64,000 bases of DNA, from NCBI GenBank assembly GCA_008632985.1, contig QPGO01000067.1, positions 1 to 64,000 on the forward strand, given 5' to 3'. Positions 3,001 to 25,700 of the stretch are shown in pieces. Both the position numbers and the translations under genes were made by a program. The stretch's first letter is position 1. The number at the start of each line of letters is the position of its first letter. Under the pieces are notes generated by a model. It was not told where the DNA came from. It saw nothing but the letters and a program-made list of their open reading frames with translations, and made no database searches. Source of the DNA: Psammoneis japonica (lineage: Eukaryota).

Positions 3001-4960
3001 TTTCTCAGGCTGCAGCATGTCAAAAATGCAGGCAAACTCAACTCAAGGAGGTGCTGAAGAGAAGCAAGCTTGTCAAAAAAAGCAATGACTTGGCTTGTTT
3101 TGCATGAAGCTTGACATCATGCCACCAGTGCCTTTGTTGTTGCTGCAAAAACACTGCATTGTGGGAAGAAGCTGCCACTCTGACAGAGACCAACAGAGAC
3201 ACCACATTGTGAAAAAAAACAAAAGCCAAGAGCAAATCTGGGAGGTGGGCTGTTGGAAGATGCTCCATGACAAGAAGCACCATGACCTGCCAAGACTTGC
3301 TTGACTGTCAAGCAAAGTGAGTTTTTGCTGGAGATCATCAGATGGGTCTGAAACTCAAACATTGTGCACATCCACAAGGTCTTTGAGAATCCAAGATTGA
3401 GCCTTTTGCAGCTTTGCAAAGAAGCAAAGAAGAAGCTCATCAAGCAAGTTCTGCATTCTTTCACATCTCATGGCACCGAGCTTGACATGTCCACAAATTT
3501 GAGCTCCTGTCAAAAGATGGTGGCTCACATCTCTGCATGGACTCCAAGCTGCTTGTTCTGCAGTGAGTTGAGCCAAGTGAAACCAGAGTGGGAGGGGGGG
3601 GGGGGGGGGGGACAAAGGATTTGAGGATCCATTGTTCAAAAAGCATGTTGTCATCATCATTGTCTGGGCCTTGGGTTGACATTGAGACAGGATTCCAGGG
3701 CACAGTCCTCACACCCTCCAGGGCTGGTGCCACTCTTCTGCTCTTCTTCCTCCAAATGCTGTGTCAACACCATTTTCTTTCCTTGTTTTGCCTGTTTCTC
3801 ACAATGTTTGTTTTCACAGAGCCATTTTTCCTGCATTGAACCTTCATGTTTGACAAATGACGGCATTTTTCCAACATTTGACACCTGTTGTCTGCAGCAT
3901 GGAAGAACCAAACCAAACAATGTTGTTCTCCAGGGTGAAAGAATGTGGCATGCAACCACCTGTCATTCTCCTCCTGGTGGTGCTGCAGAGATGCACCACA
4001 ATGTGTCATTTGCCAAAGCTCAACTCTTCCTGCCAAACCATCCTTGCACCACAGAGTTGGGCTGACTGCTGTGTGCACACCCTGTTCTTGCTTGGGTGGC
4101 TTGCAAATCATGCCTGCATCAACAGCAGCCGGAGCAACATTTTTGTGTGGGCGATGTGGAAAAAATCTTCAGGCTCAGTGCTGGTGTGATGCAACCTCAT
4201 TCAGAGCCCCAGCGCAATTGTCTTGAGCACTGTGTGTGGCACAAAATTGCAAAATGTCATGCGAGCTTGACCCAGCAGGATGTGAGCACTTTCAGCCACC
4301 CAATTGCCCAGTTTGAAGATGCAGTGTTTCAGCTGCCAGTTTCAGAAGCAGTTGATGGCACTGTCTTGTGCCAAGCTGCCCTTCAGAGCCAAGTTGGCCA
4401 AATTTTTTAGCCACATTGTGATGACCCAATGGCCAGCATTGCCACTCTGACAGGGTTCTTGTTGCTGAACATTTTTCATGGTGGCCATGCTGGGAGGAGG
4501 CAACCCAAATCTTGAACGAACGCATGCCAACTGCCTCCAAAGCTTTTTTTCAAGCCACTTGCATCCCCAGGGACTTTGAGAATCAACCAGACTGAGGATT
4601 GCTGATGCACCACAAGAGCGGCACTTCTCTTGCACATGCTCTCTTTGGTGTGGCGATTGCCACCATTGCAGATGCAATCTCAGCACTGCCAGCTGTGCCA
4701 ATGGTCGTGGACAATGGTGGCACCAGTGATGGAATGTCATCAGGCAAAAGTGTCATTTGAGTGAAACCAGTGTTTGCAGTTTGGCTTGTTGCGAGCTGCA
4801 ACTTCGTCAATGATCTGTGTCAATGACATGATGACAGGACTGTGTTGCAGTGTTGTGGGAATTGCATGTCATGCACACCCCTCCTTCTTGAGCTTAAGAG
4901 GTGGGGCCTGACACTGTGTGCCATGATGAGAAACCCATTGATTGTGACAAGCATGGATTG
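1..4960. mobile_element. Heavily decayed repeat/TE-like domain, nearly devoid of both TpA and CpG; family not identifiable
   Basis: The few surviving TA sites are in TTA/TAA contexts (agtaaaa ~43, ctctaag ~988, tttaatg ~1703, ttttatt ~1796, ggttaaaa ~2548, tttttag ~4408, cttaag ~4895). ORFs are Cys/His/Trp-rich and essentially Tyr-free. Confidence 0.55.
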
Positions 4961-5200
4961 AGTTGTGTGCTGTAGCTACATTGCAACAACTGCAGTGTGG
5001 TTGGAATTGCATGTTGTGCCCACCTTTCCTCGAGCTACAGTGGTGGGCGCCTGACACTGTACACAATTCTGAGAGCCGCATTGTATAAGTGCGGATGAAG
5101 TTGTGTGCCTACATTGTAACAATTGCAGCGTGGTGGGAATTGCATGTTATACACGCCTCTCCTCAAGTCAAAGTGGTGGGTCCCGACATTGTACTCAATA
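4845..5200 (+). repeat. About 3 degenerate tandem copies of a ~135-145 bp unit straddling the domain border
   Basis: GGAATTGCATGT recurs at ~4858, ~5003 and ~5136, each followed by a ggtggg...gacaYtgt motif. Confidence 0.8.
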
Positions 5201-5902
5201 TAATGATAGCCTACCTCTTCACTGGTACGATCTGGACCGAGTTATACCTGTGCGTTAATAAGAGACAACGGTTGCATACTTTTGGTATGAAAAGGTCGCC
5301 GATAAGTGGCTGCGTCATGGATAAACTCTAAACACCGCATGAAATCGTTCCAGCCAGCATGCAACCGATCAACCCTTCCAGAAACGCGAGCTCGAAGGGA
5401 TATGCGATCATGTTGCAACTCTTCCATTCCTTTTGCACATGCCGAGCCGCTGCACCGGGCCGTTTCTTGAGTTGACGACACGTCAGACTGTCGGCTTCAT
5501 TGCGATTATCGTCGACCCATCTCAGGGCGCAAAAGTCGGGAACTTCTCGTGCGTGTTGCAATAGAACTTGTCAAAGGTCTCCATACTGAATACTTTTGTC
5601 TTGTTGTTTAGCCTGAAAAACCGCGGATCTTTCCCAACAACAATGAACCATCGGCGGCGGTGTGCGTTCTTCGTTTCTCGTGATTACGACTAGCGTATGC
5701 GGCAACCAAACAACTTTTCTCGTTTTGTGGACCCTGCACCACCCTTGTATTTGCCGCCATTTTTACAAATGCTGAACGTATTGTGCTCATTCTGTCGAGT
5801 TCAAAATGGTTCATCCAAACTGATAAGACGTAATTTTTTTCTGAATGCATGATATAGAATTACCAAAACCATCAGGGAGTGAAGTAGTTTGCAGCTTGCT
5901 GT

Positions 5903-6877
5903 CTACATCTGTTTCATCCGTCTAAACGGCATGCGATGCCGCAACGTCTCCATTCTTTCGTGAAAACGTGTGAACTTCAAATTCTGAATCGTGTGTTCTC
6001 TTTGCAGCTGAACTTGCCGCCTTTCGAAGTCTGCTTGGGCTTGGGATAGTCTCGTGTACCCTAACTCTTTCAAAATCCGTTGCCTATGACGTCTTGACAA
6101 GACAAAATCATGATTGTGACGTCTATCTAATAGCCGCGCCTGGTGTTCATCAACAAGAAGAATTTCACTGTCTATCCGATACTCCCAAGACAGTGATACT
6201 GGTGGACCCTCTGAACATGCGGGATTGTCACCCAAACATACAAGATGTTCCCGTGTGGAAACCGTTTCAAACTCAATGTGTCTCCTCGCTTTTGATTTCT
6301 TCATCTCGGTCGAGAGTGATTCCTCTAACGTTGGAATTTTAAGTATACTCTTTGTCGGCTGCCTTTTCAAGTTAATTGGATCAGCCCTGATGAAGGAATA
6401 TTGACAACCTGCGCATCGTTTTGCTTCAATACCCATGTCGCCTTTGGATTGTTTATGGGGTATTTTTGCTTCGGGGTTCTCACGCTCCACGTCGTCGACT
6501 GGCACTTCGACACCGTTTTCATCAACCCATATGACGTTCTCTTCATAACTCTCCCTCGATGTACTTTCCAGTTGGTTGTTCGAGTCCATCAGTTCCTTCG
6601 TCTTGGGTATTGTGCGCGTCGTGGTATCTAGCAACGAATCCCCAGTCTTCATGCTATCGACAGTTTCATCGTGTCTCACTTCATCCCTCAAGTTTGATCG
6701 ATCGACCTTTCTAGGCCCAGCTCCCCAGCGATGGAAAACTACCTTCTTTACTGGCATTGCCGGCTTTCGCGTCAAACTCGCTACATCTCCATCAATGTTT
6801 TTGATCTTGTTGTTGCCCAAGGTCAAGGATTTGACTGTGTTCACGGAGTCTTGGTAGACAAGCCAATAGAAAACCAT
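5903..6877 (-). CDS. Uncharacterised protein with an 'F-x2-V-x2-REH-x3-LGDNP-x-CS-x-GPP-x-SL-x-W-x-Y' motif that I recall from diatom hypothetical proteins
   Basis: Long open frame with normal Tyr and TA content. First ATG at 6877; the true start may be MPVKK further in. Confidence 0.7.
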   Translation of the reverse strand: MVFYWLVYQDSVNTVKSLTLGNNKIKNIDGDVASLTRKPAMPVKKVVFHRWGAGPRKVDRSNLRDEVRHDETVDSMKTGDSLLDTTTRTIPKTKELMDSNNQLESTSRESYEENVIWVDENGVEVPVDDVERENPEAKIPHKQSKGDMGIEAKRCAGCQYSFIRADPINLKRQPTKSILKIPTLEESLSTEMKKSKARRHIEFETVSTREHLVCLGDNPACSEGPPVSLSWEYRIDSEILLVDEHQARLLDRRHNHDFVLSRRHRQRILKELGYTRLSQAQADFERRQVQLQREHTIQNLKFTRFHERMETLRHRMPFRRMKQM

Positions 6878-7354
6878 CCTTCCTGCTAATGTCGTCAATC
6901 ATACAACGCACTACCCCTCCTTAAGCTCTTTGTTCATTTTCACAGCCGCTTTCCACTGCTCATCCGTGTCACAAGTTTTGTCCTCGTGTCACAATCAAAT
7001 TTGATATGGAAGCTTCAATTCAAAAATCGAACCTCGAATCTCGTGGTCGCTACTTACAATATGTACCTATTCAGCAACAAATTCTATGTATAAAAATGTC
7101 TATATAATTTATATCTGTTCTTGACGGATATATTGAAATTCCAAAAGTAAATAAACATAATCGCTTCTCAATGTAACATTGAAGTTCCAAAACTGCGGGC
7201 GAATCTTTTGTTTTGGCCGGTGTCACCGGGTCGACCACCAGCATCCACCATCGCCCAATTACCGACTACCGACAAAAATCTAGAGAAAATAATAATACAA
7301 CACAGTGCTGCATGCAATAGAAGGTACAGTTGGTATAGCGCTCCACGAATTACG

Positions 7355-9367
7355 ATGAGTTCAAACCAAGAGAAACATTCAAAGGGACTTCGAGAAGGTG
7401 GAGATGAGATACAACGAGCTAAATTTGCTCAGAAGAAAGGAGCCTCTTCCGTTCAAGGCAGCGACGTTGCGAGCAATAAGAATGACAGCAAGTTGGACAA
7501 GAGCAAAACGAGAGGGAAGCGACGCGAAGCAGAAAAACACGGCGACACAAGGGGAAGAGAAGAGGGTGGGTGGGAAACAGTGGCGGGCAGATGGAATACA
7601 ACGAAACGGCGACTTCTACAGTAACTAGGCGTGTTTCTGGCGGTCGCGAGGATAATGGACTCTCTCCAATGAGTCAACCCCGAAAGCAGCCAACGAAGTT
7701 CGATCATGTTCAAGAAGTCGCCCACAGTGAAAGCGAACGACAATTTCCTGGAGCAGTTGCGGTTGAAGGGATAGGGGCAGACACAGAGGAGGACATGGGG
7801 GAGAGCGAGCATGAAGAGAATTCGGAAACTCTTTCAGCCGGTGAAAATAATGGGGCTGATGTCGCATTCATCGCTGAAGCAAGAGTGGTCGAGGACGACG
7901 ACCGCACAGAGCTTCACAATGAAGTCGACCGTTTGCGAACGATGGTAAACGAGATGCAGACGAGAGATGAGCAGACGAGAAACACTCCGGTAGTGCAGGG
8001 TGAAGCGGTGCCTGTCGCCTCTGAAGCAGGACCAATGACAGAAGCCGCAACCGACGAAGAGCAAAGGAGCCATGACACCCATAAGAGAAAAGGCGCCGAT
8101 GGAAACTGGTTTCAACGTCAGCCCCGCTGGTTGTGGTTAGTGGTAGCCATTGTTGTAGTTGCCACTGGCGTAGGTGCCGGTGTTGGCATCTCTCAGAGCA
8201 ACAACGATACGCAACCGTCATCAATAGCCCCACAAACTGCACCTACAACATCACCTTCGCTTGAATCATCAACAACAACGCCTTCCCCAACAATGCCTTC
8301 ACCGCTGTCTTTAGAAGCTACTGTGGAGCTCGTAGAAGCAAACTCGTTTGATGGCGGCGCAGCACTCAGCGACCCGTCGTCGCCTCAGTCCGAGGCTCTA
8401 CAGTGGCTGCTGAGCAATTCTGGGCTGGACGACTACTCGGATCGCCGCAAGATGCAGCGGTTTGCGCTCGCGACTTTATACTTCAGCACCAATGGAGACG
8501 GTTGGAAAAACTCGACCGGCTGGTTGAGCAACAGCCATGAGTGTGATTGGCACATTTCGTCTCGCTTTTATGGTCCACTTTGCAGCGACGGCGAATTCGT
8601 GAGCACCATCTTTCTGCAACAGGAAAATTTGGTGGGAACTTTGCCGCCAGATCTTGCGCTATTGTCGGATTCCATATGTAAGTTGATGTAATTATGTTTT
8701 TTGAAAAGTAAGAATGAATTGACTCACGTTTTGTTTGTACAGTGACCATTCTGTTAGAGTGGAATTTTTTGTCGGGTCCTATTCCGACCGAGTTCGGGCT
8801 CTTGACAAAGCTCGGTAGGTTTCTTGAGTTTTGGATATTCCCCGAAAGTGAGCGCAATTGACACCACTCATACGAGTATGTTTAACTTTATGTCGCAGGA
8901 TTTCTCGACTTGGGTCCCAATCGGTTATCGTCGTCCATTCCTAGCGAAATTGCAGGCATGACTAGTCTAAGTAAGTTACAACGGAGGTTTTGTGTGATTG
9001 ACGTTGGTCCTCTGTGTCTCTTATGTAGTGTGCGCCTCGCCATTTCTTTCTGGGGAAATCTCTTGATAATAGATTGGCTTTCGTTTGGAGAAAATGATTT
9101 AACGGGCAATGTACCTTCAGAAATCAACCAAATGACAAAGTTGGGTAAGTCATCGCCCTTGACTTCCGGCCCCTCCTCTTTCATTTCCTTTGACTTCACT
9201 CACAGCCACTATTCTCATGGCGTCCTCTTCCTCTATTATTGTCCTTCGCAGATTACCTTAATATCCAAGACAACAACTTTTCGCCGCCATTTACGTGTCC
9301 CGGCTTCATATCGACTTGCTGGGTTTCATGTGAAGATCCTTCAAATGCTTCCTGTCGTGAACTCTAA
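7355..9367 (+). CDS. Single-pass membrane leucine-rich-repeat protein. Exons ~7355-8677, 8743-8814, 8899-8970, 9073-9144, 9252-9367; apparent 1-nt frameshift near 7565
   Basis: TM helix WLWLVVAIVVVATGVGAGVGI, Pro/Ser/Thr stalk, LRR N-cap (SPQSEALQWL..QRFALATLYFSTNGDGW..WLS..HECDW), LxLxxNxLxGxIPxE repeats, GT..AG introns, last exon DYLNIQDNNF..CREL*. Confidence 0.85.
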
Positions 9368-9662
9368 AAGTTGTCACGTCACATTGATTTCTGCCCTTCG
9401 GGCAAGGATGTGGATACCACATGAGCGCAGGAGGCTTTTTCGCCGATGCCATTGCATTCAACTCGTATCGAAGAGCGAAACGCGCAAAAAGAAACAAAAC
9501 AAGGCGAACAAGAATGACGCGTGGTGATTGATAGCCACTATACCCAAAACAAGATTGAGCTTGACGAGGACGTCAACCTTAGCTTATCTTTCTACGCAAC
9601 GATAATCTGTTTTTTCGCGAAGCACCAAGCAGTATGCTTATCTTCTTTCCTTGCAACATATT

Positions 9663-10071
9663 CTCTCTACTGATTCAATGCGTATCCCATCATAGGATCC
9701 ACGCTGCATAGATTTGACGGTTTTATCGACCCATTCTTGTTCCGTTACGGGAAAGGTAGTGGCTGGAGCGGGATTTCCGTCGTTGGAGCCAGTCAAGGCT
9801 CTCTCTACTGATTTAATGCGTATCCCATCATGGGATCCACGCTCCATAAATTTGACCATTTTATCGACCCATTCTTGTTCCGTGGCGGGAAAAGTAGTGG
9901 CTGGAGCGGGATTTCCGTCATTGGAGCCAGTCAACGCTCTCTCTACTGATTTAATGCGCATCCCATCATAGGATCCACGCTGCATAAATTTGACCATTTT
10001 ATCGACCCATTCTTGTTCCGTGGCGGGAAAGGCAGTGGCTGGAGCGGGATTTCCGTCGTTGAAGCCAGTCA
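9663..10071. repeat. Three tandem copies of a 138-bp unit (46-aa repeat in minus-strand ORF 9638-10156)
   Basis: CTCTCTACTG at 9663, 9801 and 9939; translated repeat GNPAPAT.FP.TEQEWVDK.VK.M.RGS.DG.RI.SVER. Confidence 0.9.
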
Positions 10072-11250
10072 CCGGCGCTGTCTTCGACGCACTGGGCACA
10101 GCAGAAGTCACACCTCCCTGACATCCTCTTTGATTCATGGCCTTGGTAGTCTTCAAGATCCAAGCTTGTTCCTTTGCGATTAAGACATGGCATTAGCACT
10201 CAGTGCAATGTTCAAGATGTGCTTCAGATTCATCTAATGCTCGGTCATTAAGCAGAGAGTTGAAGAGCCTAATCAGCAAACAAAGGAGAAGCAGCACACG
10301 AGAGGAGGCAGCATGGAAAGAGCTGCAGGGGCAGGAGCAAAGAATGGGTGCACAAGACAGCACACGAGGCATTTAAAGAAGGGACAGGAGATGCATCAGA
10401 GTGTAAATTTGGAGAGAAAGCGGGGAGCATGGGCAGAAAGATGATGAACAAGGTTGCAGCTGAGAATTTGGGTGGCCCACTGAGAAGGAGCAGAGGAGCG
10501 GCGTAAGAGGAGCTGAAATGGTCAGCAGTGATTTGATGCCAGGTGAAGTCAGTGGAGGACAACAGATGGTCCTGCATTGCCGCCCCGCAAATGTAGTTTG
10601 GATCGACCTACAAACCGCGGCTTTGGAATATGCCATACCGATCGTCTTTGTTACCTCGGTCACGACCGTAATTAAGAGGGCAGTGACGCACTCCTGCAGT
10701 GGGTAGATACCGCAAGGTAAAGCTGACGAATTGCGGTAACGACATCATCGTAACGGATATACACTGTCGCACTTCATGCCGACTGGATAATATTGACCAG
10801 AGAAGACAATAAGGATACCATGTCTATTCTAGAGTAGAAGTTCGTTGCAACCAGCAAAAAATGTGGAAATGGTCGACGTCACTGTGACAATGGCGTTAGT
10901 GCGTCGTGAAAGTCTCTTTCGTGATACTGTGTACCGTATGACATGAGACTGCAATAAAAGTAGGGCCCTAAGGTTTACTAAATGATATGTGAACTAATAT
11001 ATATATGTAATATGTAGTCGACATCCGAGACGACGACTCGCCATCGTTCAAGGAATGAAGTCATACCCATATGCTGTACATATGTATTGAAATGCAATGT
11101 TTCATTGGGAGACGATACTATATCTTGTGGTCACCCTTTTAATTCTTTCAAATAGAACACAAAGGTGCTCATCCTTGAGATAAGGCATCACAATGAAACT
11201 CCATGAAACGTAAACTCACGCAATGAACCGCATCTGCGGCAACTTGGAAC

Positions 11251-11781
11251 TCAGACCTTGACACACACGAGCTCAAGCATCATTCTGCTATCATCACCTA
11301 ATAGCACCCCAGAACACTTTGCATCCCTCAGACCACCGACCCAATTTATAACTGCGTCGTCACCACCGTATTTGAAAAGGCAACGCGCAATGATTGCTGA
11401 ATATCCAGATTCACAACTTGCCTCGACAGTTTGGACTCCTGGGAGGGACTCTAAACCCGTAGTCCCAATTGAGTTGCTCACAATTTTATGAGACTTTCGA
11501 GTGAGGGAATTCAATTTATTCTGCTCCCAATCCTCTGAGACCCTCCAGTACCTCCAACTTCCAGACACCGGCACGCCCCTTGGTTGCACAACATCCCACC
11601 AGGTGGCGGGGGGTAACAACTCGGCATTGACAAGCTCGATATCTTTTCGGATGGGCGTAAAACCGGAAGCATGGATCTCGCCAGGGTCTCCTAACTCCAT
11701 TTCCACTTTTTGTGCGCCCTCGGTTATTGCCGTCTTGTAGTCAAAACACGGCTGTGTTAGCCTCATCGAGGGTACGACCAT
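11251..11781 (-). pseudogene. Possible class I histone deacetylase-like fragment
   Basis: GGDDAVINWVGGLRDAKCSG resembles the class I HDAC motif DIAINWAGGLHHAK, but the catalytic HH is absent and the ORF is short. Confidence 0.3.
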
Positions 11782-12172
11782 GCCATAACCAGCTTGACTC
11801 GCTCTTTTGTGCCTGTGCGTGTCTTATCCATATACATCAGAGTTCTTCAGAATGTTCTCCGTATTCTCTATAAGTCATTTCAATGACTTATCCCAAACTG
11901 CAAGGTCTAACGAGATAAAGACTTCAGTGATAACAAAATTGTGAGCGAAAGACCGAGGTAACGAGGGTCGCTTTCAGCGAAGCCCGTTACAACGGCTTCC
12001 GTTATATCTAATAGGTTCATTAATACTATATATCAGAAAAATAAGGTGCGAGACACTGCACTCTTCCCTTCCATGATTCGAGTGTCGAGAATCATGCGGG
12101 ACTCAAAAAATTTAAATTCCAATGGATGAGGATAGAAGGGAAACCCAAATGTTGGGGAGAAAACCCTTAACC

Positions 12173-15100
12173 TCAGGTATGATGCGGTACGACGCGACGT
12201 ATATTCAATCGTTCTGTCACATGAGGTGTGCGTTGGACCGTAAGTGTGCCGTTGGCGTGCACTTGAACGATGGGACATGGACCGTGAGCTCGTGGCTCGA
12301 GCTTGGTTGGGTCGACAGCCTTGAGTAGAACTTGTCCGCCAACTTGAAAATCGCAGGATCGGCATTTAGCGTTGGCTCGATGGAGATTCGCATTGACAAT
12401 CGCTTGTCGGTGTTCTTGAATGGCAGCAAGATCGGCTGGGACCGGCAAGTCAAGAATCATGTCACGTTGAAAAACCACAGCACCGGGTGAAATCTTGAGA
12501 GCACGAGAAACCGCACATCGCATTGCATGCATGGCGGTTGCCAATGCATTGTCCACTAGTTGATTGGCCTGCTCAACATTCTGTGGAGGATAAACATGAA
12601 GCAAAGTGCGCAAGACATTTCCAACAGTTTGATGCATGCGCTCGCATGCTGCATTGGCTTGTGGATTTCGCGACGCAGTCGGAGCGTCTTCCACTCCTGC
12701 TCGTTGCAATGACAATTGAAAGTCCTCTCCAATGAATTCTCCACCATTGTCATGGATGCACCGGTTGGGACGAGGACAACGAGACAACCAACAATTTTCA
12801 AATTGTTGAGCAATGTGAGACGAGGTTTTGTTGTCGATGCGAGTGAGTTCAGTCACATTCGAAACGGCATCAATGCAAGTCAAAGCGTTGAATTCGATTT
12901 CATGGTTTTGAATTTCAATTTTCCAGGGACCGATGAGGTCAACCGCAACTTCCGTCCATGGCAACAAAGGCGCTTCCCGTTCAGGCAGGTCCCCACATCC
13001 AGGGCCCAAAGTTTTCAAACGTTGACAATCAGCACAATGAAATCTTTCACAGGATTGACGAAGGGCAGGATGACAGAAATGTGCGCCAATGGTGGAATGC
13101 ATTCGGTGCACTCCTGCATGTCCCAAAATCCTGTGATGCCATCGCATGATGTCATGCAGCAACGCCGTTGGAACACAAATTTTCCACGCAGTCGGAGGAT
13201 CATTCGGTCGAGCACGATGACAAATTACAGGACGCTGATTCACATGTTCCACAACGAAGCGTTCTGGATGTTGTTGTCGCATGTTGTTCAGCTCCACGTC
13301 GACGAATTGGTGTTCTTGAATTCGTTGCACAGTTGCAGGGTTTTGCATTTCCTCGAGAGAAGGACAGTTCAAAAATGATTCACACAATTTGGGGTCGTCC
13401 ACGACAGAAGAATAAAATGGAGATGGTTCTTCACGACGACAGGAAAAATGAGATGCGCTGTTTTGGTCGTCCAGTTCTTCTTCATGCGGTGGCATGGCAG
13501 GGTCGATCGTCTTAAAATCAATCAGCTTGCCCTTGTCAGGAGCACACTTCCCTTCCGCAGGAGGGTCCACACGCGGCAATCTTGAAAAACAATCCGCCAA
13601 GAGATTGTCTTTGCCATCAACGTATTCGAAAGTTGGGGCAAAATCTTCCAAGAAGAGTCGCCACCTAAGAACTCGTTGAGAATTGAGCGTGCGAAAGGTG
13701 AGATTTTTATGATCCGTAAAAACAGTGCAGTCAGCTCCAAATGACATGCTTCGAAATTCTTTGAAACACATCACCACCGCCAACAATTCTTTTTCAATCG
13801 TAGAGCAGTTCTGTTGTGCTGCGCTGAGTTTCCGGGACCAGCAAGCCACTGGTTTCCCGTCTTGCATAATTGCGGCTCCCATCTGATAGTCCGAAGAGTC
13901 AGTGTAAATGTGGAATGGCTTGTTGTGATTCGGGTGGACCCAAAGGGTGTCGTCCAGCATCAAGGTTTTCACATCTTCAAAGGCTTGTTGACATTCAGGG
14001 GTCCATTCCAACTTGCTCTTGCCTGTCAACTTCGTGAGTGGAGCGAGCACGTGTGAGCGACGAGGCCACATGTTGCGACAATGAGTTGCCGCACCGACAA
14101 ACGATCGTAGTTGCATCACAGTTTTAGGTGGTTGCATTCGCAGCACCGCTTCCACTTTCTTCTTCCACGGTCGGACTCCTGCAGGCGTGAGCCAATGGCC
14201 TAAAAAATCCGTCTCTTGGACACACCATTCGCACTTGAGTGGGTTAATTTTCAGATTGTTCTCTTCTAGTCTGGATGACAGCTCATCGAGTCGACGCATG
14301 TGAGTGTCAAACGAATCATCAAATTGAGCAATGTCATCAATGTAAGTTTCAACATCGATTCCTTTTGCCACTTTTTCAATGATGGCTTGAGCAACATCGG
14401 GAGAGGTTTTCAAACCCATGGCCAATCGACAATGTCGAAATTTTCCAAACGGAGCAACAATGGCACACAAATCCTTGGATTCTTCGTCAAGCTCGACATG
14501 ACAATAAAACACAGTGAGGTCCAACTTGGTCAAGCACTTGCATCCCGAGCGTCGGTGAACAACGTCTTGAATGATCGGCAGAGGGTGGACCTTTCGTTTG
14601 AGTGCCTTGTTTAACTCTCGAAAATCGGATGCCCATCGAACTCGTCCATCCTTTTTGGGAGTCACAAAAGTTCCGGCTGCCCATTCAGTTGGTCCCACTG
14701 GTTCCAGTGCGCCAATGTTACATGGATGTTGCAGTTCTTTCTTAAAAAACGGCTTCATCCCTCTTGGATGCTTCGCAAGCCTTAGAATGGAAGGGAACAG
14801 CGTTGGGATCAACTTCCAAGTGAACAGTCTCATGCGGACATTTGCCAAGCGTTCCATCAAAGAGGGTTTCATGCTTTTCAAGCACAGCCTGCAGCTCATC
14901 ACATTGTTCTTGAGTTGAGTGAGTTTGAGCTTGCGCCACTTTCGCGGATGATGCTTTCTCGTATTTGGCGTCCATCACAAAAGATTGTCCGAAGGCTTCC
15001 TCATCGTCTTCGTCCTCTCCGTCGTCTTCCAGTGTATCCAACCAATTCTGAACTGAGTTCCAATGATTGGATTGCTTCATTGGGATCGACGTTTCCAACC

Positions 15101-15656
15101 ACTTTGTCATTCCAAATCGAAAATCAAGCACGATTCCGGCTTTCGACAAAAAGTCTTGTCCCAAAATTAAATCACACTTGCATGGGGCATCAAAAACTTG
15201 AGCCGCAATGCTGTCGACTTGTTTTGACTTGTCAAATTCTGGCAATGTCAAGTCCTTCATAACAACGTGTCGGGAGGATTCATGTCGTCCGGCTGCCGTC
15301 TGAAAGCTCAACCGTCCTTCATCGTTCATGGTTGGATTTGCTCCCTTCGGCAAAACTCGAGAATGAACAAGAGTGTCAGCACCTCCTGAATCCAACAGCA
15401 CTCGCAACACTCGCTCACTCTCTTGATTTTGAATGGCACGCGCCGCCATCAACGTCGTTGGCACCACATTCAATGGCTCAGGAGTTGCAGTTTTAGGGGT
15501 TGGCACAGCGCACTCCAAAACGCCGCCCAATTTTTCTTCATTCACAGTGTGAGATTCCATCAGGTCTCCCACATTGTCATCAACATTAAAACACACATTT
15601 TCTTCACGATCACGCGAAACATAAAAAGATTGAGCGACACGCTCTGACTCGGGCAC
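12173..15656 (-). pseudogene. pol: Gypsy A pol (protease, RT, RNase H, integrase), frameshifted near 14750-14900
   Basis: LLDSGG; PKKDGRVR..DFRELN; YIDD; YTDSSDYQMGA; TDHKNL; H..GH..C..C; VDLIGP; DNGGEF; NPQAN..ERMH. Confidence 0.92.
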
Positions 15657-15668
15657 TTCCGTCCCTTG

Positions 15669-16914
15669 TCAATTGCGCCAACTTCGTTGGCCTTGATGGG
15701 TGTGACCGTTCTGATTGCATCCATTTCCACCTCGCATCTCACGAGGCCCTCCTTGATCAAAATGGTGCGACTCCATTTGCCAGCCACCAGGAGGAGCTGC
15801 TCCAGCCGGATTTCCACAGCCTTGGGTGTCACCGTTGGCTTGGGTGCCGTTTTGATTTTGGCAACAGGATCCATTCCCTTGAGAATTCTGGGAGTTGTTA
15901 CAATTGCCGTAACCTTGGCCTCCATGTCCTCCTTGATTGCCACAATTGCCACGTCCTCGACCTTGGAAGTTGCCACGACCGCCTTGACCTTGGGGTCCTC
16001 TGCCTTGGCAGTTTCCTCGGCCTCCACCACGACCTCCGCTACGACCGCCACGGTCGGACCTCGGTCGACAGTTTTGGCTTTCTGGATTCAAAACACAATC
16101 CTTCCACTTGTGGTCGTGATTCGCATGCACCGGGCATCTAGATTCTGGATCCGTTCTGCCACTGTTGCCACGAGAACGTCTTGAAGCTTGAGACGAAGCA
16201 CCATTGCTTTTCCTCTTCTTGTCCTGCTTCTTGTTGCCACTCTTGTCAGCAAAAGATTTCTCGTTGTTCATGCAACTGATGATCTCAGCAAGAGCATCGT
16301 TCGCTGTCGCTCGTCCTGCTCGAGCATGCATCTCACGCCACGGACGAGGAAAACTGTCGAATGTCATCTTTTTCTTCTGAGCTTCGTTGACTTGAGGAGC
16401 ATTTCCTGGAAGTTTGTTGGAGTGCCGAATCAAGGTTTCCATGCGATCTGCATGCGCCTGCACTTCAGATTTGAATGGGTTTTTCAAAGTCAGCAAATGT
16501 TCAATCATCGCATCACGCGCTTCATTGTCACAATAAGACAAGTAAAAACGATTAATTTCCTGATCAAAACGCTCGACAGTTTTATCGGCATTCGTCAATT
16601 GCATTGGTCAAGTTCGCCCACTTGTCCTCTGCAGCATCCGCAAGCACTTCCTCGAAATTTTCGAACAACTCCTCGCCAGCAGTGTGCTCCAATTTCACAG
16701 CAATTTTACGAAAACGATCCTCAACGAACAACAATGCTTCAATGCCATGAGCACCATCAAAACGCGGACACTTTTTTGTACGAGTGCTACCGTCATCATA
16801 CGATTGGGTCAATTTCACTTCCTCCAAGTCAGAATGCTCAAATTTAGCTTCACAGCTGGTGCAAGGCTCCTTCAACGATTCACTCATCATGAAAAAGGGA
16901 ATGCAATTGTTCAA
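15669..16914 (-). pseudogene. gag: Gypsy A gag-like ORF, frameshift at ~16590
   Basis: Lies upstream of the protease; CPVH-x4-H-x4-C knuckle followed by an RGG/N/Q-rich tail. Confidence 0.75.
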
Positions 16915-17581
16915 TGGTCCTCTCCAGGGACTCTACCTTTGACTCCAAATGATGCACTCGGCTCGCCAAATTCTGTTTGTGTCGTTTACGTTGTTGCACT
17001 TGTTTCTGGTGCTCAATGGCCCAAACTGCTGCTCTTGCGCGTGGTTCTCTTTTCTCACGTTTGGTCAATTTGTTTGCATTGTTCCCAGTCTCCATCCAGT
17101 TCTTTGAATCGACTGTAATTACAGTGCAAGGTCTAACGAGATAAAGACTTCAGTGATGACAAAATTGTGAGCGAAAGACCGAGGTGACGAGGGTCGCTTT
17201 CAGCAAAGCCCATTACAACAGCTTCCGTTATGTCTGACAGGTTCATCAATGCCACACGTCAGAAAAATGATGTGCGAGACACTGCACAAACAACACAAGT
17301 CTTTCCAATGACTCATTGTGTGTGTCTGGGTTCGGTTTCTGATCACTGCTTCAAGCACTGCGTTCCACACATTTCACAAGATCTCCGAGAGAGTGGCTCT
17401 GAGAGATCTGTTCTATCTCGTCTCACAATTCGAGCATCTAACAGCACAACATCTACATTGTCAACTATCTCCTGGCGCCATTGGGCACAGCAAATTTACT
17501 CCCCATCTAAATCCAACTTGTTCTTTGCTTCTGCGAAGCCCTCATTGTCGACAGCAAGTCTGGCGAATTGCCCTGACCTAA

Positions 17582-20500
17582 CATGTCAGCTGAAAACTGT
17601 CCTTTCCATCTTGTTCGCCCGGAACGAACAAGCGAAGAACATCGCAAAGATCGTTTTGTGTCTTTCGAGTCTCCAGTCGACCCAAATGATCCTGATGGAC
17701 TCAAGTCCACCATAGAAGTGCGTGCATTGGACAGTGATGACCCTGAAGACACTCTCGCTTTCTTCAAGCGTTGTGAAGAAATCTCTGCTGTCCTCAACAT
17801 TGCAGAGGGAATTCCACGTTTCCGTCCAATCAACCGCCTTTTGACAGGCCAGCCGATGGATGACTGGAACACTGTCATCGATCAGCACGAAGATCGAGAT
17901 CAAGACACTTTTCTTGCGGCACGCGAAGATTGCACCTTGACCAAGATGACCCGCGACATTGCGGCAGACACCAAGGATTGGCTGCAGTCCCTCAAGAAGC
18001 CACGCAATGACACCGTACAGTCATTTCTTCAACGTGTCCGCCAGATCCACGATCTCATCCCATTTGTGCCCTTGCCAACGGACGAAGATGTTGTTGATCC
18101 AATTCCGAAGTTCGCGGAAGCGGAGCTCGTCGTTGTCATCAGAAAATCCGGTCCCAAATCATGGATTCATGACCAAACCAAGGCCAACATTCGAGGATTG
18201 GGCCTCAACCAACAGGTCCAGTGCTGTGAAGGCTTGCGATGCATCGAGCCAAACAATCCTCGAGACAATTCTGGCGGGAATCGCCGGAACAATCGAAACA
18301 ATTCATCCAATCGTCGTGGTGGAAACCAGACGAATCGCAATGACAGGAATCAAGGTGCCAGTTCCAACAGAAGAAATCAACAGTCAAATGACACATGTCC
18401 CACACATGGTGTTGTGCATCCCGGTGGAAGGGAGTGCAACATCATTCGCCGAGAACGCAAACAGCATCAACATAACCGCACCAACCGCGGTCAACAACAG
18501 CAAGGCTCCAACCGCAATCAGAACAGTCAGAGGACTCAGCCAAGTCATCAGTGTGATGCAAGGAGCCATTCTCGTCTTCCAGAAGAGAACAATCAGGTTC
18601 AGAATCAACCTGCTCGTTCGACACAGGTTCGACTCCGCTCGAATCCGAACGACGCTGATGGCGCATCGTCACAAGACATCAACGAAATCTCCGACATGTT
18701 TGAAGAGATGAGTGCCACTCAGGAGTCCCAATTGAAAGTGCCGGACCCTGCATTGACTGCGGAAGCGACGACTCAGTTTCTCAATCGCGAGACAGGCCAA
18801 CACAAATGCTGTCTTGGCCTGCTCGACACTGGAGCGCGTGGCAATTTCGTCAAGCGTGATGCGCTCAAGTCCATTCCTCATTCCATCAAGACTGTGGATG
18901 CAAAAGTCAATGGAAGACACAAAGCAGTCAAATCTTCGCAGCTTGCCACTGTTGAAATCAAGCTCCCAGAATTTACGAGTGCAAAAAAAGCATCTGTTGA
19001 TGCTCACATCGAAGAGAAGGCAATCGGGCGCCATGACATCGTTGTTGGCCGCCGAACGTACCAAAGCCTTGGTCTCATCTTCAATTTCAAGACCAAGAGT
19101 GTCACATGGGACGATGTTGCCATTCCCATGCGTCCAGAAGGATCAATGGATCGAGACGAAATCACAAACATTGATCCTGCCGATGCAGCTTTGCCTGATT
19201 TTATGCTAGCTGCCATTCAACGTCAGACTCGTGCCATTTCTAGCAACGAGTGTGACAAGCATGACTGTCAGAAAATGGCATCGGAATGCAACCATTTGAC
19301 TGAAAGTCAAAAAAGACGACCTGTTGGAATTGTTCGGTCGCTGTCCCAATTTATTTGATGGAACCCTCGGTGCAGTTCCTGGTCCTCCGATCAAACTCCG
19401 AGTCAAGCCTGGCTCTGAGCCTTGTTGTGCCAGGGCTTGCACCACACCTCAAGCCCTTTGTCCCATCGCAAGAAAAGAAGTCGATGAACTTGAAAACATT
19501 GGCGTCATTGCTCGCGACATTGCTTCCGAGTGGGGCGCGCCATGTTCACTCCGACCAAAGAAAAATGGCGGAGTCCGTTTCTTGACCGACTTGCGGTGCC
19601 TCAACTCATGTCTCATTCGCCATCCTCATCCAACACCAAATCCTGATGATGTGATTTGGAAAATCAACGGATTTGCGCACGCCACTTGTTTCGATCTCAA
19701 CCGTGGCTACTGTCATTTCGCACTCGACCGAGAGTCGAGCAAGCTCTGTGCTGTCATCTTGCCGTGGGGCAAGTGTTGCCACCTTCGACTCCCTCAAGGA
19801 GCCATGCCTTCGAGTGACATCTTCCAAGCCTTTGTCAATCGACACTTTGGCGACATGGAAGACACATGTGCTTTCTTCGACAACATTCTTTTGTTTGCAA
19901 AATCAACTTTCGCTCAGCACCTCCAACGAATCAAGCTCGTGCTTCGTCGACTCGATGAGAGCAACCTTTGAGTGCACATTGAAGGCACTTTTCTTGCTGC
20001 TCCTGAGGTTGACTTCTCAGGGTGTCACATCACGAGAAAGGGTGTCACACCTCAGAAGGAAAAGATCATTCCCATCCTTTGTTTTGCTTCTCCCAAGAAC
20101 AAAAGTCAGCTCAGATCGTTCAATGGGTTCGTCAATTTTTGTGAGAAGTTGTGGCACCGCAAGAGCCACACCATGGCACCTCTGTCGGCTGTGGTTTCTC
20201 CTAAAATCAAGTTCAAGTGGACCGATGCCGAAGAACAAGCTTTTCAAGCTATGAAAAAAATTGTTGCTCGCCAAGTTCTGTTGCGCTTCCCTGATTTCGG
20301 TCGCGACTTCCATGTCTATGCCGACGCGAGCGATTGTCAACTCGGCGCCGTCATAACTCAGACATTTGAAGATGGCGAGTGGCCCATTGCATTCTACAGT
20401 CGTGAACTGTCCAGAGCTCAACGCAATTGCACTGCCATGGAGAAGGAATTGCTGTCCATCGTCGAAACAATGAATGCGTTTCGTAACATCCTATTTGGAT

Positions 20501-21860
20501 GTTGAGTGCATGCCAAGACCGACCACAAAAACTTGACCTTTGACAGGTTTAAGTCGGAACGCGTCAAACGTTGGCGTCTCTTGTTGGAAGAGTGTGATTG
20601 CACTTTTGAACATTGTCCTGGCAAGAACAACATCATCTCTGACTTTTTGAGTCGCTGTCCAGTCATCGACGTCTCTGCTGACGACTTTGAAGAAGCCATG
20701 ACTCTGAAACTCTCTGAAAATGAATTTCCAGTAACCTGTGACCGCATTGCGGAACATCAAGCCGCCGACAAGTCTCTTCAACTTCGTAAGACAACTTCTT
20801 CCATTTGTGCAAGCCATCAGTTTCAGAAACATCGCATCATTCTACGGAACGACAAGATCGTCCTTCCACCCACCTTGTTCCCAGCCGTGTTGCGCTGGTG
20901 TCACGATTCTCTCTGCCATCCTGGAGCTAATCGCACCTACCTCACTCTTGCTTCCCACTTCTACACTCGAAACATGCAAGAACTGGTTCGCCGTTTCGTC
21001 CGTGAATGCCAAATCTGTCAAAAACAAAAACGCACCGTGAAACAGTGCGGCGAATTACCACCACCAGATGTCGTGTGCAAACCGTGGCAAGTTGTGCAAG
21101 TCGATCTCTTTGGGCCCCGGACGTTTGCCGACATCAACGGCATTGACCGATCCATCAAGGCCGTCTCTGTGATCGACGTTGCCACTCGTTGGCCCAAATT
21201 GTCATCATGCAGTTCCAAGACCTCCGAAAACATCTCACCAATCGTGGATTGGGTGTGGTTCTGTCGTCATCCGCGACCCGAGTCCGTCATTTATGACAAC
21301 GGACCGGAATTCACGTCTGAATTTACCGGCTTGCTTGACAGCTGCGGAGTTGAGCCCAAGCCTGCGACCCCGTTAAAAATCCACAAGCGAACGCGATTGT
21401 CGAGTGCATCCACCAAGTCATTGGCGATTCCATCCGATCTGTGGATCTCAGCTCAAGACCTTTTGATGATTCAACAATCGAAGGTGTGCTTCAATCCGTC
21501 GCATGGGCTCTGCGCAGTGCCTGCCACACAGCCCTTGTGTCCACTCCTGCTCAGTTGGTCTTCGGCCGTGACATGGTCATTTCTGCGACATGTCTGGCTA
21601 ATTGGAAATTTATCAACAAACGTCGTGCTCAAAACGTCCTGCGCAACAACGCGCATGAAAATGCCAACCGTTTGCCTTGCAATCACAAGGTCGGTGATCA
21701 AGTTTGTGTGACCACCAAGGACGTCCAACGCAAGTTAAACCCCAAAGAGGGTCCATTCGCATCGCACGCATTCACACCAACGGTGCAGTCACCATCCAGC
21801 ACTCTCCCGACGTCACTGAACGGATCAACATCCGTTGTCTTCACCCTGTCTTCTAAACTG
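17582..21860 (+). pseudogene. Gypsy B gag-pol with several stops and frameshifts
   Basis: CPTH..H..C knuckle; LLDTGARG; PKKNGGVRFLTDLR; YADASD; EKELLSIV; TDHKNL; HDSLCHPG..CQIC; VDLFGP; DNGPEF. Confidence 0.92.
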
Positions 21861-22745
21861 TCCAGTTGGGGAAGCGAGTGCTGTGGGTGTGTGTGTCTGT
21901 CCGTAAGTGCATTGTGTGCGTGTCTCATCCATGTGCATCAGAGTTCTTCAGAATGTTCTCCGCATTCTCTGTGAGTCATTTCAACAACTTATCCCAAACA
22001 ACACAAGTCTTTCCAATGACTTGTTGTGTGTGTCTGGGTTCGGTTTCTGATCACTGCTTCAAGTGCCACGTTCTGCACATTTCACAAGATCTCCGAGAGA
22101 GCAGCTCTGAGAGATCTGTTCTATCTCGTCTCACAATTCGAGCATCCAACAGTGTGACATCTACATCATCAACTGTCTCCTGGCGCCATTGGGCAAACTG
22201 TTCCGGCAGCATTGCCGCACAAGTCCCCTGAGGGCACATGCGAGCAATGAAGTGCCCAGCACAGTTTGAACATCCGGGGAGCGTCACATTCACAAGGAGG
22301 CTGAGATCCGCCTTGACATTCATCGCCCCAATTGTCATCAAGAGAATGAGCGGCAGCAGCTTAGAAGCAAGTCGTGACAAGAACACACTTTGACATGCTC
22401 CAAAAGACAAGTTCGAATGATGATGTCGTGGTGTTGTGAGGACAGAATTTGCAGTCTCTGGCAACCCAGTGTGAGCCAATGGTTTGATTAGAACCAAGTT
22501 GACAACTGGCCTTGTGATGAACACAGATGAACTGGTTGTGATCACTTTGAATTTCGAAAAGGTGAGAAGACGAACGTCTCAACAAGTGTTTTCCGACAAG
22601 TGTTTGAGATGTCTTCAACAATTTGGGGGCCGCACGTGTGAACAATTTGGGGCCACAGAAATCGAATGTTGACAATCGGATGTCGCAGATGTCGCGAGGC
22701 ACAAATGGACGTCAACAGTCACACTCCCTCATTCGATGAGATGGG

Positions 22746-25700
22746 TCACCAGCCGAAAAGCAAATGACGGAGCTCATGGAAAGCCGCCTTGGGCAGCTGT
22801 TTCGTGAAGATGTCGGCTTGTTGATCGGCAGTGTGAATGGGTTGAACTTCAATGCGACCGTTGGCGACTTCGTTGCAAAAGTGGTGAAGCATGACGTTGA
22901 AGTGTCGAGTGCGTGGGCGCATTTTGGGTGCGCGAGCGATCTCCATTGCGGCGGAGTTGTCCTCGAACATCGTGCAATGCATGACAGGTGTCGTTTTCAC
23001 ATTGGTGTTTTTTTCCTTGAGTTCTTCCAACAGACACATGATAGATTTCACATGTCTGGCAGCTGCAGAGAGGGCAATGTGTTCAGATTCTGCGCTGCTG
23101 AGAGCAAACATTGTTTGCAGCTTGGAAGACCAATGCAGGGGCACATTTGCAAACTTGACAGCAAAACCAGAGCAAGAGCGAGCGGCATCAGGATGGTTTG
23201 CTGCGACAGCCTTGTCCCAGTTGCCACAAAAATCAGCATCAACACAGCAATCAAGGCCACGTGTGTCGTCTGGTTTGATGATGCATCCTTCATTTCGGGT
23301 GGCTGGCAGACATCTTCCAATGTGTTTGATGGCAGCGCCGTGAGAAGCTTTGGGATTCGACGTGAAGCGGGCGCATTGGTGAGCAGCATGTGCAATGTCA
23401 CCTCTTGTTGATTTTTCTAAGAAGTTCAGTTTTCCAATGACAGAGCGGCAGTTCCATGATTCCTGAAAAGGTGCGCCATCCGGATCGGGTCCGATGAGTT
23501 TTGCAGTGCTTGCTGGGAGCTCATGTGTCTTGGTGTTGTTTGAATTCGAGTTGTTGCAAGTGCCAATGAGACCAAGGTCTTGGAGAATGCTGTCAACGAG
23601 TTGTGGTTGGTGCAGTTTGAAAGAGCCGTCCGGTGACGTTTCGATTTTGACGCCAAGGCAGTCACCAATGTCGCCTTCATCGGACATGCGTGCACATGCA
23701 CCGAGATCCTTGATACATTGATCAATCTTAGCATCCGAAGGATCGAATGTAAGACCGTCATCGGTGCAAACTGGGAACATGGTCGTTCCACGGCAGAAAA
23801 CACATTCGTCGAATGAAGACTGTGTAAAACCAATGTCGAGTAGCACGTCTCGTAAGAATATAAACCACGTTCGTCCAGCGTCTTTTCCACCACATATGTT
23901 TTTCAATGCTTCCAAACAATGCTTGTTGCGATCCAAATTAGGAAAGTTGATGCCTCTTGGCAGTTCCACAAAGGTGGGCCTTGGAATGTCAGCGTGTGGA
24001 TGTGCCAATACAAAGTCAACTTGTCTTGATTTCCATTTGAAGAGGATGGAGAGAATAAGGAATAGACGGATGATAGTCCAAGAAAGTGTTGGAGCACAGG
24101 TTTCCTCGTAATGTTTTCCTTTCTTCATTTTGTGTCCTCCCAAGTTGAGTCGACTTTTCCACTTGCATGCTTTGCGTGTGCCGATACGTCGCTTGCGCTT
24201 CATAGACCATATTGCAGGAAGAATAGTCTCACCCTGTGGTACATCAGCCTTTTCAATAACTCGCCAATGTTTCCTATCGGTATGGTCTTGGACTTCTTTA
24301 ACCACAGCTTTCTTGAATTCGTGAGCGTCTGGTTCGCGAAGAGCCTCGTGCATGTAGAGAGTGTCCGGGTCATTGGAAGCTTTCATGCTGTACAAAATGG
24401 GGTCTTCTAGTTGATTTCGGTCGTCGTCGATGAGATACATGTCCTGGGCAATAGCTTCATAAGTGGTTGCAGCGTATGAGACAATATTTTGTTGACGTTG
24501 AAGTTGTGACTCAATGGCCCTTTGGGTCATTTGGACTTTACGACCAGAGCGAGTTGTGACCGTTGGTGTTGGCGATCCTGAGTCGGCTGCAGAAGTTTCA
24601 GAAGTCTCGTTTGTTGTTGATGGACCTCCCTCATTTGGTGGAGTAGCGGTCTCTGTTTGATCCGAGTGGCTTAGAGATGATCCTGTATCATTTGTATTGT
24701 CCATATCAGTTGGTGGTAAGTCCGATACATCTGGAGTAGGAGCTGCAGTCACCTTACGTCTTGACTTATCAGTTGTTTTTGCAGAGAATCTGACGCGTGC
24801 TTGTTTCTTGTAATGACACTTTTCTTGCCATACACTTCGAGGGATGACGGATGAGCCTTTGACAGTCTCAAATAGGTCGTCAAATTTGACATGGTATTGT
24901 GGAGAGGCAAGTCCTGTTTCAAGGTTAAGGATGAGTGCCACAGATCTGGCGTGTCTGGGTGAAGGTCCGAGGTAGATACCCACTCGTGCTCTTGTTTCCC
25001 ACTTTGGTAGATGAGAGCCTGACTGTAACTTGTTCTTTAACACATGTGCAGGACATCCAAAAGAGTGGAAGTGTCGTAGTTTTGGTTTGACTTGCACGTT
25101 TGCGAAGAGCTCTATTGGAGATTCGTTTCCAGGAGATCTGGCGGTGTGATTGTGCACGTTGTTGGCATAGCGTATAGCACATGGCCATAAGTGGTGATCA
25201 ATAGCGTTTGGCCAGCGATGGTGAGCGTGTATAAGTTGTGTTCTCGCTTGCTCTTGTAGGTCTCTAATGCGTTTTTCTGCTCTGCCGTTCTGAAAGTGTG
25301 CATTGACTCCGCAATGGGTCACATGCTGCCCTTGTTGACGTACCGATTTGATGAATGCGTTGTCGGCGAATCGTCCATTGTCGGCGTGACAGTGTTGGAT
25401 ACGGACTCCGAGGGAGCGGGCAAATGCTTCATAAGCAACTTTGGCGTGTAGCGTTTCTTCTGAGGTGATCGATTTTTGTAAGCACACGAAGGACAGGTCG
25501 CTATAATGGTCGACGAAGACCGTGACGTAGCGACATCGTTGACGTGTTGGCATGCCCTTGAGTTGAGCTGTTAGTCCAGGCGTGGTGGCGTCGAGTTGGT
25601 CGACTGATGCTACTTGGCCGGCAGCAGTGGCTTTGAAAATTTTGGTTTGTTGTGTGCCCTTGGTTCGCCATGGTACCTTGGTGGCTTTACCATAGCGGCA

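Follow-up and report, generated by a model that had tools for sequence, protein, structure and literature searches.

One-sided loss of TpA between the long terminal repeats of a nested Gypsy retrotransposon in Psammoneis japonica

The two long terminal repeats (LTRs) of a retrotransposon are identical at insertion, which follows from the established mechanism of reverse transcription. How can the LTRs of one element then come to differ in such a way that nearly all of the changes are of one kind and are found in the same copy? The question is raised by a Ty3/Gypsy element, here named Gypsy A, which occupies positions 11899-17286 of a stretch of 64,000 nucleotides from Psammoneis japonica (assembly GCA_008632985.1, contig QPGO01000067.1, positions 1 to 64,000); this whole stretch is called the window in the following. 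The initial annotation of the window claimed that the LTR pair had mutated asymmetrically according to the distance from the domain edge, and aligning the two copies bears out the asymmetry. The process, which the annotation left unnamed, is a TpA-to-CpA/TpG hypermutation which strips the dinucleotide TA from the transposon domains of the window. The explanation that we find probable as a whole, without regarding it as secure, is a TpA mutator which is targeted by place and spares a border of about 0.4 kb of nested Gypsy repeats.

The LTR pair of Gypsy A

Judged by its sequence, Gypsy A is a single Ty3/Gypsy insertion on the minus strand (Table 1). The LTRs are direct repeats of 162 bp each, which start with TG, end with CA and are 90.1% identical. 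The order of the domains, with a weak protease match upstream followed by reverse transcriptase (RT), RNase H and integrase, fits Ty3/Gypsy. Pfam places RVT_1 at residues 106-261, RNase H at 324-445, the integrase zinc domain at 601-655 and rve at 686-771 of a pol frame with zero stop codons. The insertion sits 85 bp inside the 5' LTR of a second Gypsy element on the plus strand, Gypsy B. This 5' LTR of 286 bp is split in two, and both pieces are colinear with the 3' LTR of Gypsy B across Gypsy A. Because of this colinearity, and because of the matching CAAAC duplication, both ends of Gypsy A stem from one insertion event; as both LTRs belong to one insertion they are of equal age.

The mates differ in 16 of the 162 columns. 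Twelve of these columns fall in 11 TpA dinucleotides, where the left (edge) copy always has TA and the right (interior) copy has TG (six), CA (four) or CG (one), and both products are thus found in the interior LTR. At three further sites within 16 bp (17205, 17212 and 17220) the left copy has CG and the right copy has CA, and the remaining difference is one G/T transversion. In all, 15/16 differences are transitions at TA or CG steps, and all of them arose after the insertion. The hand count in the initial annotation (about 11 TpA sites, three clustered CpG to CpA changes and one transversion) is exact on recount. Its statement that TA and CG are always retained in the edge copy also holds, as there is no site where the right LTR retains a TA or CG lost from the left. 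Beside the TA and CG counts given in Table 1, CA and TG together number 15 in the left copy and 29 in the right. For the direction of TA loss (11:0) the two-sided binomial p is 0.001; when TA kept/lost, 15/0 versus 4/11, is compared by Fisher's test, p = 5e-5.

The severed LTR of Gypsy B can be compared in the same way. Its edge piece has 7 TAs versus 1 in the interior mate, with six sites where TA stands opposite another pyrimidine-purine step (TA|YR) and one TG|CA site. The second piece, 5.4 kb inward, is as TA-depleted as its mate (4 versus 2 TAs), and here eight CA|TG double differences and two TA|YR sites explain all 18 differences. When the Gypsy A LTR and the first 85 bp of the Gypsy B LTR are taken together the direction is 17:0 (p = 1.5e-5), and the TAs kept/lost are 22/1 at the edge versus 5/18 in the interior (p = 3.8e-7).

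On the minus strand the edge (3') LTR of Gypsy A has the motif TATATAG, which looks like a TATA box; it reads CGTGTGG in the interior 5' LTR. The 5' LTR, which is the copy expected to drive the element, is the one with the altered motif. The primer-binding site by this LTR was matched to no tRNA, and the window itself is without a tRNA gene. A BLAST search of the window for a second copy of Gypsy A or its LTR returned the element itself only. A metagenome scan for the beginning of the LTR, in which two TA sites were written as Y/R, gave 0 matches, and no close relative of the pol protein was found among 5.8 billion proteins, the best match having 67% identity.

Spectrum and polarity of the mutations

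Five LTR comparisons in the window, comprising 870 aligned bp, gave 60 differences, 58 of which are transitions at TA, CA, TG or CG steps; the other columns differ in 2/442 cases. Three of the 58 are the CpG changes in Gypsy A and nearly all others are TA-derived. Interior mates show adjacent CA|TG double differences, eight in the second part of the Gypsy B LTR and four in the LTR pair of a Copia element further inward, Copia C. The intermediate class in these interior pairs is TA|YR only, never CG|YR. As identical starting copies can reach CA and TG only from TA, the ancestor of these double differences was TA.

The polarity was also followed in the pol protein, which was aligned with 40 of the 120 matches listed, 47-67% identical. 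The 21 columns with a conserved Tyr read Y5, H6, C7, F2, A1 in Gypsy A; Tyr has become His or Cys in 13/21 of them and there is no change in the opposite direction. Other conserved residues are kept (His 11/12, Cys 13/15, Trp 15/15, Gln 13/14). The share of Tyr is 0.75%; among the 120 matches listed the minimum is 2.56% and the median 3.52%, and none is poor in Tyr. Because Tyr has turned into His or Cys while the other residues are kept and no stop has arisen, the change ran from TA to CA or TG, with the two strands affected about equally, and not in the opposite direction. From the outgroup proteins and the LTR pairs with CA|TG double differences, the right (interior) LTR of Gypsy A is the derived copy. 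At 17220 in the interior LTR all 6 other contigs have G, which also puts the derived state in this copy. A third LTR piece of 35 letters (from run X1) with three-state sites (TA/CA/TG) was dropped as evidence on polarity; it fits a TA as well as a CG ancestor.

The process is not confined to retrotransposons. A segment of the left gene island including a leucine-rich repeat (LRR) type gene (6834-9154, 9155-9727 and 10007-10564) has a duplicate in the 40-52 kb domain. At 104 columns TA stands in the island copy and CA or TG in the domain copy, and the reverse is found at 3. The products in the domain copy are 49 CA, 50 TG and 1 CG, and 7 TAs are kept. CG has been lost at 123 columns in the domain copy versus 12 the other way. 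The duplicate is old, because transversions are found in 116/3422 aligned columns. As a host-gene duplicate is mutated as well, the mutations arise in the chromosomal DNA itself, beyond retroelement intermediates. Strand-coordinated tracts of CA and TG products were looked for in the duplicate and no clustering was found (runs test z = -0.9). All 7 surviving TAs in the domain copy are preceded by T (TTA), versus 19/99 of the mutated ones. This could stem from the sequence context or from local clustering; the TAs left in the inner Gypsy A LTR are without the TTA pattern.

Across the window the TpA and CpG contents follow the domains. The gene islands (5300-11800 and 53900-64000) have a TpA observed/expected ratio averaging 0.59 and normal CpG; in the younger transposon domains (12-36 kb) TpA is 0.07-0.3 and CpG normal, and in the old domains (1-4000 and 36001-54000) TpA is 0.01-0.09 and CpG 0.03-0.43. 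The depleted domains consist of Gypsy, Copia and long interspersed nuclear element (LINE) like DNA. With falling TA the ratio (CA+TG)/(AC+GT) climbs from about 1.2 to about 2.0, and GC in TA-depleted DNA stays near 48%. The three CG|CA sites in the inner LTR of Gypsy A stem from a second and slower process of CpG decay. The window was compared with other family copies at the 40 best-supported of 309 variant places in contigs. For CpG, the others have CG and the window TG or CA at 15 of these places, with the reverse at 1; for TpA, the others have TA and the window CA or TG at 10, with the reverse at 6.

A change of TA to CA or TG makes no stop out of a sense codon, because by the genetic code TGA arises only from TAA. 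As TA loss creates no stops, the mutated pol of Gypsy A is still open and long frames with no family match are abundant; as TAA and TAG vanish with TA, long spurious frames are to be expected in TA-depleted DNA. Very long frames without a family match are found on several strands and frames of such DNA, as at 17577-19358 (plus) and 26523-30932 (minus), with 593 and 1470 aa. The old domains at 1-4900 and 36000-53700 have many long open frames with no recognisable Pfam family, and the excess there is of CA+TG. About 8.5 kb between the Copia C body and its 5' LTR (26523-35092, minus) hold long frames and an endonuclease/exonuclease/phosphatase match at 30400-31098; this insert is probably a nested LINE-like element. 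The sole N of the window is at 31099.

Two more repeats were noted in or near the duplicated segment. Direct repeats at 48185-48353 and 51098-51263 (166-169 bp, 94.7% identical) bound a 3-kb insertion in the segment, and 5/6 of their differences are transitions at CA/TG/TA steps. A frame at 9638-10192 (minus), in the gene island, has three near-identical tandem units of 46 residues, corresponding to 138-bp DNA repeats at 9662-10074 which are 93% identical; a related piece is found at 51275-51339.

Table 1. Positions in the window of the nested Gypsy elements and of other features named in the text
Feature	Position	Strand	Basis
First 85 bp of Gypsy B 5' LTR, severed by the Gypsy A insertion, TAs kept, at the junction with unique DNA	11814..11898	+	90.6% match to 21915-21999
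Left target-site duplication of Gypsy A, CAAAC, 5 bp	11894..11898		sequence read directly
Gypsy A 3' LTR, edge copy; 15 TA, 10 CG	11899..12060	-	alignment with mate, dinucleotide counts
Gypsy A polypurine tract, minus-strand sequence GGAAGGGAAGAG, adjoining the 3' LTR on its upstream side	12061..12072	-	sequence
Gypsy A pol frame (RT, RNase H, integrase), open for 933 aa	12173..14974	-	Pfam
Change point from normal to collapsed TA; best position 12206, support interval given	12206..12391		likelihood change-point
Gypsy A gag and protease region; aspartyl protease match weak, under the Pfam cut-off	14742..16607	-	Pfam
Gypsy A 5' LTR, interior copy; 4 TA, 8 CG, three CpG-to-CpA changes	17125..17286	-	alignment with mate
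Right target-site duplication of Gypsy A, CAAAC, 5 bp	17287..17291		sequence read directly
Remaining 201 bp of Gypsy B 5' LTR, displaced to 5.4 kb inward of the border, TA-stripped	17287..17487	+	91.0% match to 21995-22195
Gypsy B internal part; RT 19300-19968, integrase 20506-21708	17488..21914	+	domain search
Gypsy B 3' LTR, interior	21915..22195	+	alignment with 5' LTR pieces
Copia C pol frame, 1228 aa, open throughout	22749-26432	-	LTRs 22469-22724, 35120-35375
Domain copies of gene-island segment 6834-10564, interrupted by two insertions	40159-42478, 47604-48184, 51275-51838		83.6-87.5% identical

The border of the TA-depleted domain

The density of TA stays normal as far as 12202, beyond which it collapses. 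The step was placed by a likelihood change-point analysis on TA/(TA+CA+TG) over 10800-13400; the ratio is 85/280 to the left of 12206 and 6/236 to the right, and twice the log-likelihood difference is 81. Position 12206 is 392 bp into the repeat nest, which meets unique DNA at 11814, and 307 bp into Gypsy A. The spared zone is the outermost 0.4 kb or so of the repeats, 85 bp of Gypsy B and 307 bp of Gypsy A, starting at the junction. Sequencing data were available as contigs of three runs from a single study. The summed word-depth of contigs from run X1, which is a sum over contigs and not a copy number, is 47.5-69 in the unique flank, 332 at 11863, about 300 over Gypsy B and 2000-3800 over Gypsy A. 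The proposal that mutation depends on the distance from the domain edge is right in that the edge copy is spared, but TA content drops in one step, about 300 bp into the element, and there is no gradient. The more general proposal, that copies of the same age mutate by position, agrees with the matching duplication, the derived right copy and the TA-keeping zone on the left. That the border is the cause of the sparing of the edge LTR goes one step further, and we regard it as likely rather than established.

Two other edges were examined. At the left edge of the gene island the island side of tandem units found by BLAST at 4846-5199 keeps TA 5:1 and CG 5:1; Tandem Repeats Finder reported no repeat at 4500-5600. 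At the edge at 53.7 kb the outer copy of a 136-bp repeat (52625-52760 and 53678-53809) keeps TA 2:0 and CG 2:1. Where both members of a pair are interior the TA imbalance is small (2:0, 0:4 and 1:0). A search of the window for barrier elements found no tRNA gene and no Rfam family.

The explanation we prefer runs as follows. Gypsy A inserted 85 bp into the 5' LTR of Gypsy B, which itself adjoins single-copy DNA. After the insertion a context-specific mutator would have turned TpA into CpA or TpG across the transposon domain. It would have reached all DNA inward of about 12.2 kb while the outermost 0.4 kb or so of the repeats escaped; the inner 5' LTR of Gypsy A lost 11/15 TAs, the TATA-like motif included, and 3 CpGs, and the outer 3' LTR none. 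The anatomy, the spectrum, the polarity and the step in TA content can be seen in the sequence, and the part played by the border, by chromatin and by a particular chemistry is inferred from them. The change is an A:T-to-G:C transition on either strand. Its simplest chemistry would be deamination of the adenine in TpA, the product being read as G at the next replication; an alternative route via a modified thymine would give the same products. A slower decay of CpG to TpG or CpA went on alongside. Targeting may follow a silent chromatin state which also bears CpG methylation, and this would account for the parallel CpG decay, while neighbouring active or unmarked chromatin may set the border back from the edge of the repeats. 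The targeting would be by place and not by sequence homology alone, because LTRs identical at insertion have fared differently in one nucleus.

Several observations weigh against this explanation. The evidence comes from one border with two nested LTR pairs and from two weak edges, and 17220 is the only site in the Gypsy A LTRs which is polarised directly by other copies. Deep in the domain Copia C has 3 kb with normal TA (about 23.75-26.7 kb), and because of this patch sparing does not need a border. The first 900 codons or so of Copia C have normal TA and Tyr, with 6-7 Tyr per 300 residues upstream of residues 901-1228, whereas both LTRs and the last 328 codons are TA-stripped (0 Tyr, 17 His, 15 Cys). 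At the junction, single-copy contigs of the runs X1 and X2 track the window to 11814 (2/1315 positions differ from the window flank) and then continue with 311 and 224 letters foreign to the window; the foreign end of the single-copy contig has 0 matches in the window, as letters or as purine/pyrimidine pattern. Gypsy B is also without a matching target duplication (gtgcc at 11809-11813 versus aactg at 22196-22200). As the contigs leave at 11814 and Gypsy B has no duplication, its join to the unique flank is putative.

The competitor which survives best is a patch left unhit by chance. It supposes that the mutations come in episodic tracts, that the outer 0.4 kb has not yet been reached and that its position at the border is coincidental. 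The mid-domain patch in Copia C, with a sharp TA boundary inside one element, speaks for it, and so does the uneven loss within Gypsy A, where 12601-13200 has lost every TA and 13401-14400 still has 16. TpA mutations in the chlorarachniophyte Bigelowiella natans arose in some lines only, according to a preprint (Mettrop et al., bioRxiv 10.64898/2026.01.13.699255). On the other hand, only 23/407 interior 400-bp windows (5.7%) have a TA observed/expected ratio of at least 0.5, and all of them lie inside the one Copia C patch. The spared zone begins exactly at the repeat/unique junction, and the two other edges lean the same way. We consider chance an unlikely explanation, but a serious one.

A second competitor is that the left 0.4 kb has been misassembled, haplotype-switched or converted from an unmutated copy of Gypsy A. 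The contigs departing at 11814 and the missing Gypsy B duplication are in its favour, and the summed contig depth, although not a copy number, points to many copies of the A family as potential donors. The CAAAC duplication and the colinear Gypsy B LTR nevertheless bind both ends of Gypsy A to one insertion site. A haplotype switch requires a second locus with Gypsy A at the identical site in Gypsy B. The initial annotation had named gene conversion or a chimera at the left LTR as the danger to its claim; conversion from another A copy is contradicted by the spared 85 bp of Gypsy B, which it fails to explain, and a possible misjoin at 11814 would alter what the border abuts and not the asymmetry inside the nest. 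An explanation of this kind is therefore given a very low probability. The exit of the contigs at 11814 and the lack of a Gypsy B duplication suggest that the insertion is polymorphic, that copies of B have rearranged with each other or that the sequence is misjoined; most simply, the contigs would represent a different allele or strain which lacks the nest, and one end of Gypsy B would have been rearranged in the past. A base-calling artefact of modified DNA was also judged unlikely. At least 99% identity to the stretch is found in 407/1712 contigs of run X1, and the sequence is thus present in an independent type of data, although X1 may be the source sample.

Selection is hardly credible as the cause. 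A gene next to the outer LTR would use it as promoter or leader, and variants with hypermutation would be purged; the LTR does keep TATATAG on the minus strand and faces an open frame starting at 11784, but this frame (11251-11784, minus) is without a homologue (0 matches), and selection would need to guard about 30 separate TAs over 0.4 kb. The reverse polarity, in which changes from C to T of the kind known from repeat-induced point mutation (RIP) made the TAs of the left LTR out of CA and TG, can be practically dismissed: all 15 transitions are formally readable as C:G to T:A changes in one of the two copies, and TA/(TA+CA+TG) is 30/82 in the spared zone versus 267/1210 and 391/1879 in the gene islands, but conserved Tyr went to His or Cys with no His, Cys, Gln or Trp moved to TA-containing codons or stops, the transposon domains are TA-poor rather than TA-rich, CA|TG differences between LTR mates are impossible if TA is the product, and only one copy of the duplicated gene segment has been mutated.

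Relation to known systems and implications

The signature has recently been described in B. natans, and its occurrence in a diatom lineage is new. The preprint reports that integrated foreign DNA, that of viruses included, is hypermutated from T/A to C/G specifically at TpA. In two viral inserts 230/231 new single-nucleotide mutations were A-to-G or T-to-C, all at TpA; an insert from a nucleocytoplasmic large DNA virus (NCLDV) has a Rho TpA of 0.45; reverse transcriptase and DDE domains are over-represented in coding sequences low in TpA; and an ADAT2-like adenosine deaminase is proposed as the agent (Mettrop et al., bioRxiv 10.64898/2026.01.13.699255). As in that account, the changes in the window are almost only TpA to TpG or CpA, on both strands, and clustered in foreign or transposon DNA. 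The two cases differ in that the mutations here have struck LTR retrotransposons and a host segment present in duplicate, with TA driven almost to zero, in that CpG decay coexists and in that the border is resolved to a few hundred bp inside an element; borders, LTR pairs and CpG decay are not described in the sections of the preprint consulted. The lineages are also distant, the former being a chlorarachniophyte and the named relatives of a flanking gene here being pennate diatoms, from another supergroup. The genes in the window are long single open frames. One of them, an NDH2-like gene at 57488-59041, has best matches of 54-61% identity, and its organism-named relatives are all pennate diatoms with 45-56% identity (Seminavis, Pseudo-nitzschia, Cylindrotheca, Nitzschia, Amphora and Bacillariaceae). 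Searches by sequence features point mostly to Bacillariophyta as well, one of them with a mixed outcome. A search for literature on TpA hypermutation in diatoms found none, and the B. natans preprint was the sole directly relevant work found.

Like the RIP of fungi, the process inactivates repeats through transition mutations which depend on the dinucleotide context. RIP turns CpA into TpA, gives an AT-rich product with stop codons and mutates both members of a duplicated pair; in the window it is TA that disappears, GC is about 0.48, no stop arises and only the domain copy of the duplicate is mutated (TA 104 versus 3, CG 123 versus 12). The process resembles methylation-driven decay of CpG in the changes of CpG to TpG or CpA, in the low CpG of the old domains (observed/expected 0.03-0.43) and in the 15 versus 1 variant places, but differs in that CpG changes explain just 3/16 of the differences between the Gypsy A LTRs. 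Editing of retroelement RNA or cDNA before integration, of the APOBEC or ADAR type, reportedly leaves clustered transitions attributed to deaminases in LTR retrotransposons. Such editing acts on one strand and before integration, whereas in the window both strands are affected equally, the LTR mates differ with their position in the chromosome and the duplicated host gene, which is no retroelement, is affected too.

A practical consequence concerns the dating of insertions. As 58/60 LTR differences in the window are transitions at TA, CA, TG or CG steps, dating by LTR divergence is invalid here, as the initial annotation had maintained. In such genomes it overestimates the age about ten-fold or more, the raw divergence being 3.6-9.9% versus 0-1.2% at other sites. 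That RIP inflates LTR ages is a known caveat (PMC4522978). A second consequence is that dead elements retain long open frames and that spurious frames appear on all strands, by which gene callers are misled.

For the biology of the process the LTR pair of Gypsy A is a natural experiment, in which sequence, age and nucleus are equal and the place is different. As the mates are equal in all but place, targeting purely by homology or by small RNAs is disfavoured, and the pair points to a domain mark which can be located within a known interval of 200 bp (12206-12391). A second and distant lineage with TpA-specific hypermutation would mean that the Bigelowiella case is not a one-off, and it would place the process in the diatoms, a major group of algae. 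It is quite possible, although we would not yet call it probable, that diatoms have a mutator for genome defence which erases TpA, probably by deamination of adenine in DNA, and which is aimed by chromatin position rather than by homology or small RNAs, with a sharp limit some 0.4 kb into the block of repeats and with identical LTRs distinguished purely by place. Together with Bigelowiella, TpA editing would then be a widespread and overlooked counterpart of RIP in the stramenopiles, alveolates and Rhizaria (SAR).

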